64,000 nt of DNA, from NCBI GenBank assembly GCA_965219955.1, contig OZ244799.1, forward strand, positions 3,936,001 to 4,000,000, read 5' to 3'. This document shows positions 14,936 to 25,495 of the stretch, in pieces. Every line of letters starts with the position of its first letter. Within the stretch, counting starts at the first letter, position 1. The position numbers and the translations under genes are program-made. The notes beneath the pieces are model-generated. The model searched no databases. It saw nothing but the letters and a program-made list of their open reading frames with translations, and was not told the DNA's origin. Source of the DNA: a bacterium. Lineage in GTDB: Bacteria > UBA8248.

Positions 14936-15028
14936 GGAGAGGTGTCCGAGAGGCCGAAGGAGTACGACTGGAAATCGTATAGGTGCCCACAAGGTGCCTC
15001 GAGGGTTCGAATCCCTCCCTCTCCGCCA
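14936..15028 (+). tRNA. tRNA-Ser(GGA)
   Basis: GGAGAGG/CCTCTCC acceptor stem, anticodon arm TACGA-CTGGAAA-TCGTA, long variable arm, GGTTCGAATCC and encoded CCA. Confidence 0.97.
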
Positions 15029-18108: not shown

Positions 18109-19836
18109 TCAAGCGTATGAATTTCCACCCGATTTTCGCATCCGCCCCTGGCGAATGTCGACTATCTTTCCGTTGAACAAGTCCATGATTTCCTGAATTA
18201 CCGCCTCTTCATTCTCATCCGGTTTCCGGCCACGCGCATTGCTCGTTTCCCCGGCTCCCTGTCCGGTTTGCGAACCCGCTCCATTTTCCGCGCCCGCTAT
18301 CTCGACCCTGGCGCTCCAGGGGGAATGCTCCCGGAAAAACTCCTCGATTTCGGGCAGCACCTCCTGCGCCAAGTGCAGTCCCTGCGCGTTCCGGTTCTCC
18401 CGGGCGAGAACCACGCGGATGGTTCCTTCGGTTTCGAGGTCGAGCTCGACGCCGTGAAAGAGCGGGCGCCTCATCGGACGCAAGGCCTCCACCGCTCCCG
18501 TCCAGACGCGCCGCGCCTGAACGGTGTTCCACTCCTGTGTTTCTATATGCGCGACGGGAGAATCTCCCGAAGCAGGCTCGGTCGCAGGCGGCGGGGCGGG
18601 CGCCGTGGTTTCCCGGGGAACCGGAGGCGGCGCGGCGGCTGGAGTTTCCGCCCTCGTCGAGGGGGCGCGCGGGGGATTCGGCGCCGCTCCCCCGCTCATG
18701 GATTCGAGCCTCTCCATCAATGCGCCCAAATCCGCAATCGGCTCAATCTGGCACATGCGCAGAATCGCGACTTCGAGCGTCATGCGGGGATGATCCGAAG
18801 TCCTGAGTTCGAACTCCGCTCCCTGCAGAATGGAATACGCCTGATGCGCCTCGGTGAAACTCATCTTCGCGGCCACCTGCTTGCGTTCTTCGATCTCCGA
18901 AGCCGCCACGTCGAAGAGCGCCTCATCGTCGCCTGCCGATAAGAGCACCATGCAGTCGCGCAGATACTCGAGCAGGTTCGCGGAGAAGAGCTTGAGATCG
19001 TGGCCCGCGTCGAAGAGACCCTTGAGCTCGGTGAGCGCCCTGTTCCCGTCGCGCTCGATCACCGCCTCGACCAGGGCTTTATAAATGCTGCCCGAGGGCA
19101 CCCCGAGCACCTTTTCCACTTCTTCACCCGATACCGGATCCTCGGCGGCGAAAGCCAGCACCTGGTCGAGCAGGGATTGCGCATCGCGGATGCTGCCCTC
19201 CCCCATCCGCGCCAGCAGCTTGACGGCCGCCTCGTCCATCTTCCTGCCCTGCGCCTCGACGATCTTAGAAAGATGTTCCGCGATGACGGAAGTCGTGATC
19301 CTCCGGAACTCGAACACCTGGCAGCGGCTTAAAATGGTGTCGGGGACGTTCTTGATCTCCGTGGTGGCCAGGATGAAAACGACGTGGGGCGGGGGTTCTT
19401 CGAGCGTTTTCAAGAGCGCGTTGAAGGAGCTTTTCGAGAGCATGTGCACTTCATCGAAAATCACCGTCTTGTAGCGCCCGCGCGCGGGCTGGTAGCGAAG
19501 GCCCTCGCGCAGTTCGCGCACGTTGTCCACACCCGTATAGGTGGCGGCGTCGATCTCCAGAATATCCGGGTGGCTTCCCCCGGTGATCTCCTCGCACGAT
19601 GAGCACTCGTTGCACGGCTCGGGCAGAGGCCCGTCTCCCGATTCGCAGTTGAGCGCCTTGGCGAGAATGCGCGCGGTGGTCGTTTTGCCGACACCGCGCG
19701 TTCCGCTGAACAGGTAGGCGGACGCGACGCGCCCCGAGGCGAGCGCGTTCGAGAGCGTTCGCCGGATGTGCTCCTGGCCGATGAGTTCTTCGAAACGCTG
19801 CGGACGCCATTTCCTGGCGCTACCGATGAAGGCCAT
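18109..19836 (-). CDS. dnaX: DNA polymerase III subunit gamma/tau
   Basis: ARKWRPQRF, GTRGVGKTT, DEVHML, LLKTLEEPP and SRC; start at ATG 19836. Confidence 0.96.
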   Translation of the reverse strand: MAFIGSARKWRPQRFEELIGQEHIRRTLSNALASGRVASAYLFSGTRGVGKTTTARILAKALNCESGDGPLPEPCNECSSCEEITGGSHPDILEIDAATYTGVDNVRELREGLRYQPARGRYKTVIFDEVHMLSKSSFNALLKTLEEPPPHVVFILATTEIKNVPDTILSRCQVFEFRRITTSVIAEHLSKIVEAQGRKMDEAAVKLLARMGEGSIRDAQSLLDQVLAFAAEDPVSGEEVEKVLGVPSGSIYKALVEAVIERDGNRALTELKGLFDAGHDLKLFSANLLEYLRDCMVLLSAGDDEALFDVAASEIEERKQVAAKMSFTEAHQAYSILQGAEFELRTSDHPRMTLEVAILRMCQIEPIADLGALMERLESMSGGAAPNPPRAPSTRAETPAAAPPPVPRETTAPAPPPATEPASGDSPVAHIETQEWNTVQARRVWTGAVEALRPMRRPLFHGVELDLETEGTIRVVLARENRNAQGLHLAQEVLPEIEEFFREHSPWSARVEIAGAENGAGSQTGQGAGETSNARGRKPDENEEAVIQEIMDLFNGKIVDIRQGRMRKSGGNSYA

Positions 19837-19888
19837 CAAGAATCCATCCCAAGGATTTCCGCCGTTGAGGGGCCCCATACCCCCATGA

Positions 19889-20088
19889 GCGGCGCGCGGA
19901 CCCTGCGATGGAGTCGACCGGCCAGGCGCCCTCGTGGCACCCGGGAGTGTCCACTTACCGCTGCTTCCTTCCGGACCTGACGGGGTTCGCGGGCTCCCGC
20001 CGCACGAGACCCAACCGGCCGAATCCATCGCAGGCTCTTGGGGAAATCCTACCCCGTCCCCCGGCCTTTGGGAAGCGGGCGCGCCGGC
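19889..20088 (-). ncRNA. ffs: signal recognition particle RNA
   Basis: GTCAGGTCCGGAAGGAAGCAGC domain IV; long closing helix; upstream of dnaX; ends approximate. Confidence 0.9.
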
Positions 20089-20255
20089 ATTTCGGCGACG
20101 GCGAACCACGCGGCGGATAACCGGCCATATAACATGGCGTTAGGGGGAGTCCTGCTTGAGCAGACGACGCCCGAGGGGAAATGACGCGCCAAGCCGGGAA
20201 CACCGTCATTCGCCGGAATGACGATCGAAAACCCGGCCGTAACCAGGGGATTCCC

Positions 20256-21594: not shown

Positions 21595-22356
21595 ATGAGC
21601 CATCCCCTGCCTCGAGAAGTCTCGCCCGGCGTCTTCTGGCTCGGCGACTGCCTCGTGCAGCACTCGCAGGGCAAAATCTATCACTCCTACAACGCGGCCT
21701 TCCTCGTCATCGGCTCAGAAGCCTCCATGCTGATAGAAACGGGACACCCCAAGGATTTCCCCATCATCGAGCGCCAGATGAAGGACATTCTGTCCCGCGG
21801 CGGAGGGCCGCTCAAGCACCTGTTCCTGACCCATCAGGAGACCCCCCACTCGGGAGGTCTGGGCCGCGTGCTCGACAGGTACCCCGACCTCACCATCCAC
21901 GGAGACATGTGCGACTACCATCTCGCGTTTCCCCAGCACGAAGGCCGCTTCAAGGAGATGCGGGTGGGAGACGCCATCGACCTGGGCGATACGAAGTTCA
22001 TGGCCGTGGAGCCGGTGATCCGGGACTTGAGGAGTTCGCTCTGGGGGTTCGAGACCAAAGGGCGCGTGCTGTTTCCCGGAGACGGCTTCGCCTACAGCCA
22101 CTACCATACGGACGGTCATTGCGGGATGTTCGCCGAAGAGGCCACGTCTCTCGATCTGGTCGACGTGCTGGGCGTATTCGCCGAGCGCGCCCTGTACTGG
22201 ACCACCTTCACCGACATGAACGTCTACGCCGACAAGCTCGAAGAGTTGATGGATGAACTAGACGTCGAAATCGTCGCGCCGACGCACGGCCTGCCGATAC
22301 GGGACATCGCGCAAACGATGCCGAAAGTCCGGGAGGGCCTTGTCCGGGGCGACTGA
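21595..22356 (+). CDS. metallo-beta-lactamase-fold protein (FprA/ODP-like di-iron domain)
   Basis: LIETG, THQETPHSG, LFPGDGF and VAPTHG. Confidence 0.8.
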   Translation: MSHPLPREVSPGVFWLGDCLVQHSQGKIYHSYNAAFLVIGSEASMLIETGHPKDFPIIERQMKDILSRGGGPLKHLFLTHQETPHSGGLGRVLDRYPDLTIHGDMCDYHLAFPQHEGRFKEMRVGDAIDLGDTKFMAVEPVIRDLRSSLWGFETKGRVLFPGDGFAYSHYHTDGHCGMFAEEATSLDLVDVLGVFAERALYWTTFTDMNVYADKLEELMDELDVEIVAPTHGLPIRDIAQTMPKVREGLVRGD

Positions 22357-22422: not shown

Positions 22423-22769
22423 GGGGTTGTTGAAAAAGCCCTGATTCCGTGATTCAGAGTAAGTAGCCGACCGAAGAGGGAAGAAACGTCACGATCCCCT
22501 TGTAGAGCACCCAACAACCACTCCCCCCTTGAGGGTCTGGCTTCCCGAGGGGAAAGCCAGACGATGAAGCCGAGCGGTTTGTGCGAAGGCTGAATCGGTG
22601 GGGGGTAAAATACGTTTTATCGCCATTCCGAATTATACCCCCCATCGAATCGCTTTCGGGCTTACGCCCTTAGCTCTTCGACTCCCCCTCAAGGGGGGAG
22701 TGATTTTTCTCTCTCGTCGGTCGGTTACATATAACAAATCCAGAGTTCCGGGGCTTTTTCAACAACCCC
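22423..22769. mobile_element. MITE-like composite enclosing the 185-bp palindromic element (22519-22703)
   Basis: GGGGTTGTTGAAAAAGCCC ... GGGCTTTTTCAACAACCCC form perfect 19-bp inverted ends. Confidence 0.75.
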
Positions 22770-22787
22770 GCCCTGGCCAGGCTTGAC

Positions 22788-23186
22788 TTAAACGTCCTCC
22801 ACCAGCTCCCAGAGCGTACCCATCGTGCTCTTGGGCTTGATGAAGGCGATGAGGTGCCCGCCGAAGCCGGGTCTTGATTTCTCATCAATCAACTCGAAGC
22901 CCTGCGCCTTCATCTCGGCCAGCACGCCGTCGATGTTCTTCACGTCGAAGGCGACGTGGTGGAGGCCCTCGCCGCGCTCCTCGATGAACTTGGCGAGAGG
23001 CGAATCCTGTTTGATGGGCGAGATGGGCTCGATGAGGTCGCCGCCCAGGTCCAGCATGGCCAGATCGGTCGCGCCGTCTGCGGAGGTCTCCCGCGCGAGC
23101 AGCTTCGCGCCCATGCCCTCGTACAAAGCGATGGCGGCGTCCATGTCCTTCACCGCGACGCCGATGTGATGAAATTTGTTGAACAT
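22788..23186 (-). CDS. mce: methylmalonyl-CoA epimerase (VOC family)
   Basis: HHIGVAV, GEGLHHVAF and AFIKPKSTMGTLWELVE. Confidence 0.75.
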   Translation of the reverse strand: MFNKFHHIGVAVKDMDAAIALYEGMGAKLLARETSADGATDLAMLDLGGDLIEPISPIKQDSPLAKFIEERGEGLHHVAFDVKNIDGVLAEMKAQGFELIDEKSRPGFGGHLIAFIKPKSTMGTLWELVEDV

Positions 23187-23381
23187 ATCCGTATTTCCTC
23201 CTTGTCAGGCGCGGCGAGGGATAATATCCGCCCCGCCGCATCGTTGTTTCGAAGATGTTTAGCAGGCTTGGGGGGATTCCACAATCGAACCTGCCCGGGA
23301 AACTATACTCGGCGCGGCGTTTGTCGTATCCTGCGCGCATCAACGAAATTATGCGAACCACACATTCATGAGGAGATATCC

Positions 23382-23942
23382 ATGACAGGTCCTGTTGATG
23401 GACACAGCACCTCCACCGTGCCGGGCGAGCGCGTCATCGACAAGCCCGAACTCCCCAAAGGGGGGCTGTATACCGACAACACCGTCCACACCGAGATGCA
23501 CGAGGGCTCCCTGCAGCTCAAGCGCGGCACGGCGGGAGATTTCGAGATTTTCTGCGACGAGGGCGCGCACATCGGCGGCACGGCGCAATACCCCACGCCG
23601 ATGGCCTATCTCGCCATGGCGACGGGGTTCTGACTGCTCACCCAGGTGTCGCGGTACGCGCACATGATGAAAATGGATATCAAGGGGGCGAGCGTTTCGG
23701 TGCGGTTCCGGAAACTGCTGGGCGGCTCGGTGCTCAAGGGCACCGTGTTCAACAAGTGGGAGGCCGTGGACACGCATCTCAAAGTCGAATCGGACGAGCC
23801 CGCGGACAGACTAGCCCACCTCATCAAGAACGCCAAGAACGGCTGCTTCGCCGAAGCCCTGATCACCGAGCCGGTGCCGCTCCACTCCACCGTGGAGGTG
23901 AACGGCGAACCCTTCGAGATAGAGGGCGTGACGGCGGATTAA
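23382..23942 (+). CDS. OsmC-like protein, predicted selenoprotein (Sec84 at TGA 23631-23633)
   Basis: RBS GAGGAG; DEG...GG...PTPMAYLAMATGF-U-LLTQ continues in frame to NGCFAE (second OsmC Cys); SECIS-like hairpin follows the TGA. Confidence 0.85.
23643..23666 (+). promoter_or_regulatory. bacterial SECIS-like stem-loop
   Basis: GUG-(U bulge)-CGCG-GUA-CGCG-CAC, 12 nt after the UGA. Confidence 0.7.
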
Positions 23943-23964
23943 CCCCCATACCTGGAGTTTTTAC

Positions 23965-24414
23965 ATGGAATACTTCCACGCATCTGAAGACATCGCCTTC
24001 GGCTCGCAGCCCGAGCCTGCGGATCTGGAATCCCTCGCCGCAAGAGGCGTCAGGACCATCATCAACACGCGCTTTCCCGAGGAAGACCAGGGCGATCTGC
24101 CGCCCGAGCGCGCAAAGGCGGAGGCCGAGGCACTGGGGATGCGCTACGTGAACGTCCCCGTCTCGCCCGCCGAGTTCAGCCCCGCCTCGCTGGCCGAGGT
24201 GAGCCGCGCTCTCTCTGAAGCCAGGGCCCACGGCCCGACGTTCGTCCACTGAAAAGCCACGGGGCGGGCCGGGATTTGCTCGCTGAACCATCTGGCTGAT
24301 GAGAACGAGTGGACGGCGCGGGAGATGGAGGGAGCCGCCGACGCCACCGGATTCGACTGGCGCGCCGCGCCGCTCGCGCCCAAGTACCGCGAGTTCTTCG
24401 CAAGGAGACCCTGA
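23965..24414 (+). CDS. DUF442/TIGR01244-type (PTP-fold) sulfurtransferase/phosphatase-like protein, predicted selenoprotein (Sec96 at TGA 24250-24252)
   Basis: GSQP, GVRTIINTRFPEE and GMRYVNVPV, then PTFVH-U-KATGRAG, in frame for 53 more codons (..ATGFDW..). Confidence 0.8.
24263..24284 (+). promoter_or_regulatory. bacterial SECIS-like stem-loop
   Basis: GGCGGGC-CGGGAUUU-GCUCGCU, 10 nt after the UGA, with G residues in the apical loop. Confidence 0.55.
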
Positions 24415-24436
24415 GCAGGCGCAACGGGGGCGCCGC

Positions 24437-25495
24437 TCAGGAAACCGTCATTCGCGTCTCGGTATTTTCTTGTTCCTCCAATGGAAAATGGCAGGCGGTT
24501 TCGATTCCGCCGGGATGAGGAGTCAGTCCGGGCATTTCCTGTCGACACATCTCCTCTCTGCGGGGACAGCGGGAATAAAACCGGCAAACATGCGAGGAAG
24601 GATCGATGGGACTCATCGGCTCGCCGGTCAATCGCACCCGCTCGGTGCGCTCGGTCGTGTTGATGGCGGGTATGGCGGAGAGGAGCGCCCGGGTGTAGGG
24701 ATGGCGCGGGCGGCGCAGGATTTCCCGGGTAGGGCCGGACTCCACGATTTTGCCGAGATACATCACCAGCACCCTTTGGCAGAGCAGCCGGACGACGTTC
24801 AGGTCATGGGAGACGAACAGGTAGCTCATCCCGAGGCGGTTTTTCAGATCTTCGAGAAGATGCAGGATGACCGCCTGAACCGAAACGTCCAGGGCCGAGG
24901 TGGGCTCATCCAGAATGAGGAGCGAGGGCTCGAGCGCTATCGCTCGTGCGATACCGACCCTCGCCTTCTGGCCGCCTGAGAGTTGGTGCGGATAACGGGT
25001 CAGAAATTCGGGGGCGAGGCCCACGAGGTTGCACAGTTCCTCCACGCGCTTTCTGAGCTGAGGGCCGCTGCGCATTCCCCCCAGGCGCAAGAGCGGATCG
25101 GCAACCACCCGATAAGTGGTGAATCCGGGATTCAGGCTCTCCGTGGGGTCCTGGAACACCATCTGGATTTTCCGGCGCTTCTCGCCCTGGATGAAGCGGC
25201 TCGCCGGAATCCCCCCGATGTTCCTGCCCTCGAAGGCGATGGCGCCTGACGTCGGGTCCTGCAGACGGGCGATCAAACGGGCCAGCGTGGACTTCCCGCA
25301 GCCGGACTCGCCCACGAGGCCGACGCTCTCTCCCGCTTCGATCGTGAAAGTCACGCCGTCCACGGCGTGAAGATACCCCGCTTCGTCTCGTTCTTCGGCC
25401 CCCATGCCCCGCAGCGAATTCCAGACCCTTCCAAGCGCCCCGCTTCTGCGGATCGGGAACTTCTTCAGGAGGTCGACGGTTTGGAGCAATGCCAT
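24437..25495 (-). CDS. peptide/nickel-type ABC transporter ATP-binding subunit
   Basis: GESGCGKST, LSGGQ, DEPTSALD and Cys-rich C-terminus. Confidence 0.93.
   Translation of the reverse strand: MALLQTVDLLKKFPIRRSGALGRVWNSLRGMGAEERDEAGYLHAVDGVTFTIEAGESVGLVGESGCGKSTLARLIARLQDPTSGAIAFEGRNIGGIPASRFIQGEKRRKIQMVFQDPTESLNPGFTTYRVVADPLLRLGGMRSGPQLRKRVEELCNLVGLAPEFLTRYPHQLSGGQKARVGIARAIALEPSLLILDEPTSALDVSVQAVILHLLEDLKNRLGMSYLFVSHDLNVVRLLCQRVLVMYLGKIVESGPTREILRRPRHPYTRALLSAIPAINTTERTERVRLTGEPMSPIDPSSHVCRFYSRCPRREEMCRQEMPGLTPHPGGIETACHFPLEEQENTETRMTVS

Follow-up and report, generated by a model that had tools for sequence, protein, structure and literature searches.

The 64,000-nucleotide stretch of bacterial DNA analysed here (GTDB lineage UBA8248, assembly GCA_965219955.1, contig OZ244799.1, positions 3,936,001 to 4,000,000), referred to below as the window, carries two adjacent genes that are each interrupted by an in-frame TGA codon. 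Gene 1 encodes an OsmC-related protein and gene 2 a protein related to the sulfur transferases of family DUF442, whose fold resembles that of protein tyrosine phosphatases (PTP). Both are very probably selenoprotein genes, in which the TGA specifies selenocysteine (Sec, U) with the help of a hairpin of the selenocysteine insertion sequence (SECIS) type. All positions are those of the window, and both genes were translated with TGA as U. The features of the locus, all on the forward (+) strand, are:

23370-23375 (+), Shine-Dalgarno-like GAGGAG, 6 nt ahead of the ATG of gene 1, from the sequence
23382-23942 (+), gene 1, predicted OsmC-related selenoprotein, 186 codons by translation, ATG at 23382 and TAA at 23940-23942
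23631-23633 (+), predicted Sec codon U84 of gene 1, an in-frame TGA at codon 84 and the sole one, motif U-L-L-T
23646-23663 (+), SECIS-like hairpin of gene 1, GUG(U)CGCG-GUA-CGCGCAC, containing a bulged U, its loop beginning with G-U, minimum free energy (MFE) -9.6 kcal/mol
23844-23846 (+), second conserved Cys of gene 1, C155, presumed resolving Cys, invariant in 20 of 20 family members, from structure alignment
23954-23957 (+), GGAG ribosome-binding site of gene 2, within the 22-nt spacer 23943-23964, from the sequence
23965-24414 (+), gene 2, predicted Sec-containing DUF442/PTP-fold sulfurtransferase-like protein, 149 codons, ATG at 23965 and stop TGA at 24412-24414
24250-24252 (+), predicted Sec codon U96 of gene 2, an in-frame TGA at codon 96, loop H-U-K-A-T-G-R
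24263-24284 (+), SECIS-like hairpin of gene 2, GGCGGGC-CGGGAUUU-GCUCGCU, with a 7-bp stem, MFE -11.3 kcal/mol
24277-24279 (+), C105 of gene 2, nine residues past Sec, invariant in the Sec clade and in P0034, the nearest Cys form

The two genes and their families

The distance from the TGA to the hairpin is 12 nt in gene 1 and 10 nt in gene 2. An initial annotation of this DNA had described two co-oriented genes 22 nt apart, with a single in-frame TGA each, products of 186 and 149 residues and hairpins 10-12 nt downstream, and all of these coordinates match the sequence.

Gene 1 is a member of an already known, curated selenoprotein family, to which it adds nothing new. It scores 165.1 bits, at a cut-off of 95, with the NCBIfam model NF041052, 'OsmC-related (seleno)protein', of whose 144 profile positions it covers 3-144, and 47.5 bits with the Pfam model OsmC PF02566. 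U84 is invariant, like C155, in the 20 family members, and the two residues align with the two Cys of the OsmC-like structures PDB 3cje and 2onf. The Sec site reads U84-L-L-T87 and has the UxxT motif that characterises the 'OsmC-like protein' (PF02566) in Table 1 of a review of 2026 (PMC13188914). Passages of a review of 2022 (PMC9312934) also present an OsmC-like selenoprotein with the UxxT motif, and 'OsmC-like' is mentioned five times in passages of the Sargasso Sea metagenome study of 2005 (PMC1088965). Two further Sec-OsmC paralogues, of 54% and 50% identity, are located in the same genome at G000:C1:374522-375070 (+) and G000:C1:3127546-3128067 (+), respectively (L149:5523-6071 and L150:5547-6068). 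The latter is followed by an AIR-synthase-related gene, a weak match to the selD model (92 bits), and then by a HAD hydrolase gene.

Gene 2 matches Pfam PF04273 (BLH_phosphatase, formerly DUF442) with 48.1 bits at a gathering threshold of 26.1. The same Pfam scan gave no match to rhodanese PF00581, and the scan of NCBIfam release 20 no selenoprotein-specific model for gene 2. A profile of 13 family members recovers the DUF442 protein 2f46 from PDB (E 2.6e-9), and a Foldseek search with an AlphaFold2 model of gene 2 places the DUF442 structures 2f46 and 3gxh on top (probability 1.00, TM 0.58-0.60), followed by many PTP and dual-specificity phosphatases (DSP). The H-U-x4-R loop aligns with YCRTGTR of 2f46, and H95, C96 and R101 (gene 2 numbering) are invariant in 20 of 20 aligned sequences. 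Classical PTP/DSP phosphatases bear the signature H-C-x5-R, whereas four residues separate U and R in gene 2; accordingly, the HMMER alignment with the phosphatase TpbA contains a one-residue gap, the gene 2 loop being of the x4 type.

Constraint on the TGA codons, the downstream frames and the hairpins

Relatives of both genes were searched in 51 genomes of the phylum. Gene 2 relatives are present in 36 of these, many of them with two copies. One TGA is found in 56 of the 59 gene 2 matches and two in a single match; of the two TGA-free matches, one is a C-terminal fragment located at a contig end, the other a weak match of 37%. In a codon alignment of 48 distinct coding sequences of the family, drawn from orthologues (64-99% identity) and a clade of paralogues (35-52%), the TGA stands at aligned codon 96 in all 48. 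The gene 1 family has exactly one TGA in 100 of 111 matches from 41 genomes, and none in the 11 weakest rows (E of at least 2e-15). The initial annotation had judged two chance nonsense mutations unlikely, and the same TGAs are indeed kept in every relative that covers the site, barring the weakest matches.

It had further pointed to conservation past the TGAs, which is confirmed by variation that stays biased towards third codon positions in both genes. Among 22 orthologues from the genus, variable sites at codon positions 1/2/3 number 11/12/32 in codons 108-145 of gene 2 and 28/19/75 in codons 97-186 of gene 1, and 30/30/77 and 19/19/61 in the upstream parts of the two genes. RNA libraries of four runs yielded contigs with 89 differences, of which 40 were listed; neither TGA is touched among these 40, and the TGC or TGT that the initial annotation had named as contrary evidence does not occur among them at either site.

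Cys occupies the column of U96 in 19 of 19 full-length Cys homologues of gene 2, which are about 150 aa long and share an invariant H-C-x4-R. P0034, a protein of 162 aa and 50% identity, is the nearest Cys form and contains HCKAIGRAGVCS. The earlier statement that the TGAs fall on the catalytic Cys of their families is upheld by these 19 homologues and 2f46 for gene 2, and by 3cje and 2onf for gene 1. C105 is invariant in the 48 Sec members and in P0034; its column is not Cys in 18 more distant Cys homologues. At E<=1e-3, 7532 relatives were recovered in a profile search that covered 1.84 billion representatives. In a quick maximum-likelihood tree of 77 rows (IQ-TREE, with Shimodaira-Hasegawa-like approximate likelihood ratio test support, SH-aLRT), the 48 Sec members group with P0034 in a single clade (SH-aLRT 100) within the Cys homologues, and P0034 is weakly placed (support 85) beside the paralogue clade. 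Judged by this topology, Sec may have had a single origin in the gene 2 family, and P0034 may be a reversion to Cys.

A second Sec-DUF442 paralogue is present in the same genome at G000:C1:2051740-2052183 (-) (L148:5741-6184 (-)), with 39% identity, the TGA at the same codon and an identical SECIS core. A transglutaminase-like gene (PF13369) precedes this paralogue by 23 nt, and most genus mates possess the paralogue as well. A paralogue in genome G010 (L073:1547-1990 (-)) has a second in-frame TGA at the otherwise invariant W132, which is TGG elsewhere, and is possibly a decaying copy or an assembly error. P0102, a distant DUF442-like protein of 94 aa from a single 1681-nt contig, ends ...GPVFVH like the shortened Sec forms and may mark a Sec clade outside the lineage; a metagenome scan aimed at its contig returned only two distant Cys forms.

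Both hairpins were compared by hand with the constraints of the published bacterial SECIS (bSECIS) model (PMC13188914, Fig. 2 legend), namely a loop of 3-9 nt, a stem of at least 4 bp, G in the first two loop positions, a distance of 16-37 nt from the UGA to the loop and an MFE of at most -7.5 kcal/mol. The gene 1 hairpin has the 3-nt loop GUA, a 7-bp stem and a spacing of 20 nt at -9.6 kcal/mol, the gene 2 hairpin the 8-nt loop CGGGAUUU, a 7-bp stem and a spacing of 17 nt at -11.3 kcal/mol. The two therefore fit the model, in agreement with the 3' SECIS-like hairpin that had been proposed for each TGA.

The gene 1 hairpin was aligned across 37 family members, 20 from other families of the class. 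Its helix (columns 17-23 with 27-33) shows compensatory changes in five of seven pairs and a covariation of 0.309 versus 0.107 in shuffles; none of 500 shuffles reaches this value, which also lies above those of all slid registers. In the family register only four of the seven pairs form in the clade of the window, whose stem needs a one-step shift and a bulged U. The helix of gene 2 pairs in 266 of 266 cells, as compared with 33-56% when the partner columns are slid, and the RNAalifold consensus of 38 distinct sequences arrives at the same helix independently. Synonymous sites of gene 2 codons 100 and 102-106 are frozen. Where the amino acid is the same in at least 44 of the 48 family sequences (conserved codons), a single codon is used throughout in 5 of 6 degenerate codons within codons 100-106 versus 0 of 27 elsewhere (Fisher p = 2.5e-5, the related sequences not being independent). 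A scan of the window against Rfam at gathering thresholds, which yielded signal recognition particle (SRP) RNA and tRNA only, is uninformative on SECIS elements; to our knowledge, Rfam holds no general bacterial SECIS family.

The sel genes, for which the initial annotation had recommended a search, are present: the same 4.28-Mb genome contains the full Sec machinery, with adjacent selA (578 bits) and selB (390 bits), selD (333 bits; G000:C1:2942487-2943449 (-), L011), itself with one in-frame TGA, and tRNA-Sec (75.9 bits, anticodon TCA). The long selA and selB frames are free of TGA. TGA is an ordinary stop elsewhere and also ends gene 2, and a TAA or TAG 1-8 codons beyond this terminal TGA serves as the stop in other orthologues.

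Catalogue status of gene 2 and pairing of the two genes

Gene 2 has 58 matches in a collection of 5.8 billion proteins, 51 of which are exactly 95 residues long. The 95-residue entries inspected end in ...FVH, i.e. at the TGA site, and NCBI gives one of them the name 'sulfur transferase domain-containing protein'. The initial annotation had regarded both selenoproteins as hidden and reported as fragments; this holds for gene 2 with its 95-residue entries, but not for gene 1, which has the curated model NF041052 and is listed in reviews. Table 1 of PMC13188914 comprises 119 prokaryotic selenoprotein families or subfamilies, none of them on PF04273, TIGR01244 or a phosphatase fold. The terms 'phosphatase', 'sulfur transferase', 'TIGR01244', 'PTP' and 'tyrosine' are absent from the text of that review, whose supplementary tables may list more candidates. 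Likewise, 'phosphatase', 'sulfurtransferase' and 'DUF442' are absent from the text of the deep-Sep paper (PMC12013277), for whose supplementary tables the same holds. A literature search joining selenoprotein and DUF442 found nothing, and in the literature naming PF04273, TIGR01244 or BLH_phosphatase no title or abstract among the matches listed was on selenoproteins.

Gene 2 thus appears to be a previously uncatalogued selenoprotein family of a familiar kind, in which Sec stands where a sulfur or redox enzyme otherwise has its catalytic Cys. It appears to be missing from the most recent selenoprotein catalogue, and public protein sets hold a 95-residue stump without the active site. Its recognition would correct the annotation in this lineage and would extend Sec usage to a PTP-like fold. 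Together with P0034 it offers a natural Sec/Cys pair for asking what selenium gives a P-loop nucleophile.

Genes 1 and 2 are co-oriented and separated by 22 nt (23943-23964). The upstream neighbour is a divergent methylmalonyl-CoA epimerase gene at 22788-23186 (-), and downstream a convergent operon for an Opp/Dpp-type ABC (ATP-binding cassette) transporter has its last gene next to gene 2, so that the two genes stand alone as a pair. The neighbours in the window and the contexts of the paralogues give no clear functional hint. A promoter and terminator scan of 22700-24900 detected no sigma-70-like site and one terminator-like site, located inside the upstream gene, which is fewer than in shuffles. 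In metatranscriptome run X18 a single contig of about 96% identity spans 23352-24429 with both genes and both TGAs. Runs labelled sponge, coral and marine metagenome contain near-identical DNA, among them the four runs whose contigs were compared above.

A search of 185,579 species genomes recovered 51 loci with a gene 2 relative, all from metagenome-assembled genomes labelled Nitrospinota, Candidatus Tectomicrobia or 'bacterium'. An OsmC gene is present at most 700 nt upstream in 20 of the 51 loci, all 20 being orthologues of at least 74% identity from one genus. None of the remaining 31 loci, among them the entire paralogue clade and the orthologues of 68% identity from sister genera, has an OsmC gene nearby. 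Within the genus, 19 of 22 mates have OsmC immediately upstream, 24-83 nt away; the gap amounts to 211 and 700 nt in two others and to 6.8 kb in one, and one genome is too incomplete to give a gap. The widest gaps belong to loci L056 (G015:C31:167000-177800; 6.8 kb) and L055 (G009; 700 nt). The gene order, which the initial annotation had recommended comparing among relatives, is conserved within the genus but not outside it. Only one genus of uncultured bacteria, labelled Nitrospinota or Tectomicrobia, shows the pairing. As far as gene order across these loci can tell, it is a recent, genus-level arrangement, and both families function apart. With the pair restricted to one genus (20 of 51 loci, 0 of 31 others), the dedicated module that had been suggested is not shown.

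Other features of the window include a stand-alone metallo-beta-lactamase-fold protein of 253 aa at 21595-22356 (+), which resembles the metallo-beta-lactamase domain of flavodiiron nitric oxide reductases without being a clear persulfide dioxygenase. The window also contains a bacterial small SRP RNA at 19917-20016 (-) (74 bits), a tRNA at 14936-15025 (+) and dnaX (DNA polymerase III gamma/tau) at 18109-20109 (-). The longest dnaX open frame overlaps the SRP RNA, and the true dnaX start is probably further in.

Proposed functions, alternative explanations and known systems

The locus is best explained by two genuine, adjacent and probably co-transcribed selenoprotein genes, the first for a peroxidase-type enzyme and the second for a Sec-DUF442 carrier of sulfane sulfur, a reading to which we assign a probability of roughly 0.8. 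SelB and tRNA-Sec would decode one UGA per gene as Sec, aided by the hairpin 10-12 nt downstream, and full-length products would result. Members of the OsmC/Ohr family have hydroperoxide reductase activity. By analogy, U84 of gene 1 would be the peroxidatic and C155 the resolving residue: U84 would attack the oxidant, C155 would resolve the selenenic acid to a selenenylsulfide, and a dithiol donor would then reduce the enzyme.

Passages of published work on DUF442 proteins (PMC5823870, PMC9163753) report that Blh's DUF442 domain moves thiosulfate sulfur to cyanide or glutathione and that the DUF442 domain fused to SQR needs Cys94. Sulfur-oxidation domains occur on 3 of the 10 closest long Cys homologues scanned, with two rhodanese domains in P0063, a metallo-beta-lactamase and a rhodanese domain in P0066 and a metallo-beta-lactamase domain alone in P0122. 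Because DUF442 comprises sulfurtransferases and fusions to sulfur-oxidation domains, a selenol-based carrier of sulfane sulfur is favoured for gene 2. U96 would be the nucleophile of the anion-binding loop H-U-x4-R and would take over sulfane sulfur, as an Se-S adduct, from a persulfide, polysulfide or thiosulfate donor and pass it to an acceptor. C105, which is specific to the clade, would be placed for a selenenylsulfide that releases or protects the selenol. Its presence suggests a selenenylsulfide step and leaves room for reductase-type chemistry in gene 2.

Several observations weigh against this explanation. Single-sequence folding of the hairpins is no better than that of shuffles (z -0.66 to +0.40; -0.45 to -1.24 in longer windows); such folding energies are ordinary for G+C-rich DNA, so the hairpins alone prove nothing. 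The gene 2 helix has no compensatory double change and three one-sided compatible changes only, and its support is therefore one of conservation, not of covariation. Gene 2 scores below the curated cut-offs of TIGR01244 (47.9 versus 85.85 bits) and NF040641 (Blh; 53.9 versus 625 bits), which makes it a distant DUF442 relative and no member of these equivalog or subfamily models. The AlphaFold2 model of gene 2 is of moderate quality, with a mean pLDDT (predicted local distance difference test) of 75.8 and values below 50 for loop residues 98-104. C105 is not found in the biochemically studied type of DUF442, and this absence argues for chemistry beyond plain sulfur transfer. Finally, the RNA libraries behind the assembled contigs may contain DNA, and a contig with both genes is proof neither of transcription nor of a single transcript.

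Explanations that deny Sec insertion altogether fare worst. If both genes were pseudogenes with chance nonsense mutations, or the TGAs sequencing errors, one would not expect all 48 distinct sequences of the gene 2 family and 100 strong matches of the gene 1 family from independent assemblies to carry the same TGA; the bare presence of the stops is all that speaks for this reading, and the frames are moreover intact and constrained past the TGAs, and neither codon is hit in the RNA-library differences listed (40 of 89, four runs). The chance of this reading is close to nil, and the comparison with relatives excludes it. The TGAs might instead be recoded as Cys or Trp, or be true stops behind functional short N-terminal products, and public gene calls do end at the TGA, giving 95 aa in 51 of 58 gene 2 matches. 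We hold this to be very improbable in view of the complete Sec machinery and of nucleotide conservation exactly where a SECIS must lie. Furthermore, third-position-biased variation persists downstream, TGA is an ordinary stop elsewhere, selA and selB are TGA-free, and a 95-aa product would be devoid of the whole active-site loop.

Among the explanations that accept both selenoproteins, gene 2 could encode an oxyanion reductase or redox P-loop enzyme, comparable to arsenate reductase and acting on selenite, tellurite, thiosulfate or protein disulfides or persulfides. U96 would form the adduct, C105 would resolve it to a selenenylsulfide and a thiol reductant would recycle the enzyme. All 48 Sec members and the nearest Cys form have the U-x8-C pair, and 18 more distant Cys homologues lack it at that column, a pattern to be expected if the two residues were a catalytic redox couple; redox enzymes make up most of the catalogued selenoproteins, two arsenate-reductase-type families being in the catalogue of PMC13188914, and gene 2 stays under the trusted cut-offs of the sulfurtransferase models. 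However, the closest fused homologues bear rhodanese and metallo-beta-lactamase domains, a context of sulfur oxidation, and no arsenic, selenium or tellurium gene stands beside gene 2 in the window or beside its paralogue. The loop is also C-x4-R as in DUF442, and not C-x5-R, the motif carried by phosphatase-type reductases. A reductase is on balance unlikely, though a credible second choice. A dedicated relay, with the Sec-DUF442 protein as specific partner of Sec-OsmC (its reductant or its sulfur or selenium donor), is consistent with the 22-nt spacing with a separate ribosome-binding site for gene 2, with a pair that 19 of 22 genus mates retain at gaps of 24-83 nt and with the one RNA-library contig that covers both genes. 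Yet only 20 of the 51 loci, all from one genus, have OsmC close to the gene 2 relative, as against 0 of 31 elsewhere, and even genus mates have the genes 211 nt, 700 nt or 6.8 kb apart. In this genome the second Sec-DUF442 copy and the two additional Sec-OsmC copies are unlinked; these copies and the 31 loci indicate that both families work without each other, and the relay appears decidedly doubtful. A more far-reaching proposal is that gene 2 founds the first PTP-fold selenoprotein family, with a selenol/thiol (U96-C105) P-loop enzyme that would reduce or transfer chalcogen species, for instance persulfides, polysulfides or selenium and sulfur oxyanions, and would in this genus have been recruited beside the Sec-OsmC peroxidase as a two-selenoenzyme defence relay against reactive oxygen and sulfur species. 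We regard it as speculative and rather improbable.

The preferred reading, two selenoproteins of peroxidase and sulfur-carrier type, can be set against four known systems. In common with the OsmC-related selenoproteins of NF041052, gene 1 has a Sec site that reads U-L-L-T, a second Cys that is invariant and a SECIS with family-wide covariation. Nothing essential differs, apart from the shifted stem register with a bulged U in the clade of the window and the three copies in the genome. With the classical Cys-based PTP/DSP phosphatases (TpbA 4r0s, VHR 1vhr, PFA-DSPs) gene 2 has in common the fold class and the position of the nucleophile after the central strand. It differs from them by a loop one residue shorter (x4, not x5) and by Sec, for which the catalogue of PMC13188914 has no user among these phosphatases.

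The DUF442/TIGR01244 sulfur transferases (N-terminal domain of Blh, DUF442 domain of the Cupriavidus SQR, 2f46 and 3gxh) resemble gene 2 in the PF04273 match, the PTP-like fold and the nucleophile in a C-x4-R loop, the nearest homologues being fused to rhodanese and metallo-beta-lactamase domains. In contrast to them, gene 2 has Sec in place of Cys, an extra invariant Cys nine residues on and a stand-alone length of 149 aa; no persulfide dioxygenase or SQR gene adjoins it, and its score lies below the TIGR01244 and NF040641 cut-offs. Rhodanese-like selenoproteins, five forms of which are listed in Table 1 of PMC13188914, are unrelated to gene 2 in fold and family (PF00581 versus PF04273). They nevertheless use Sec as the nucleophile of a sulfurtransferase-type anion loop, likely with the same chemistry as gene 2, and are thus its closest functional precedent, which makes gene 2 less surprising.

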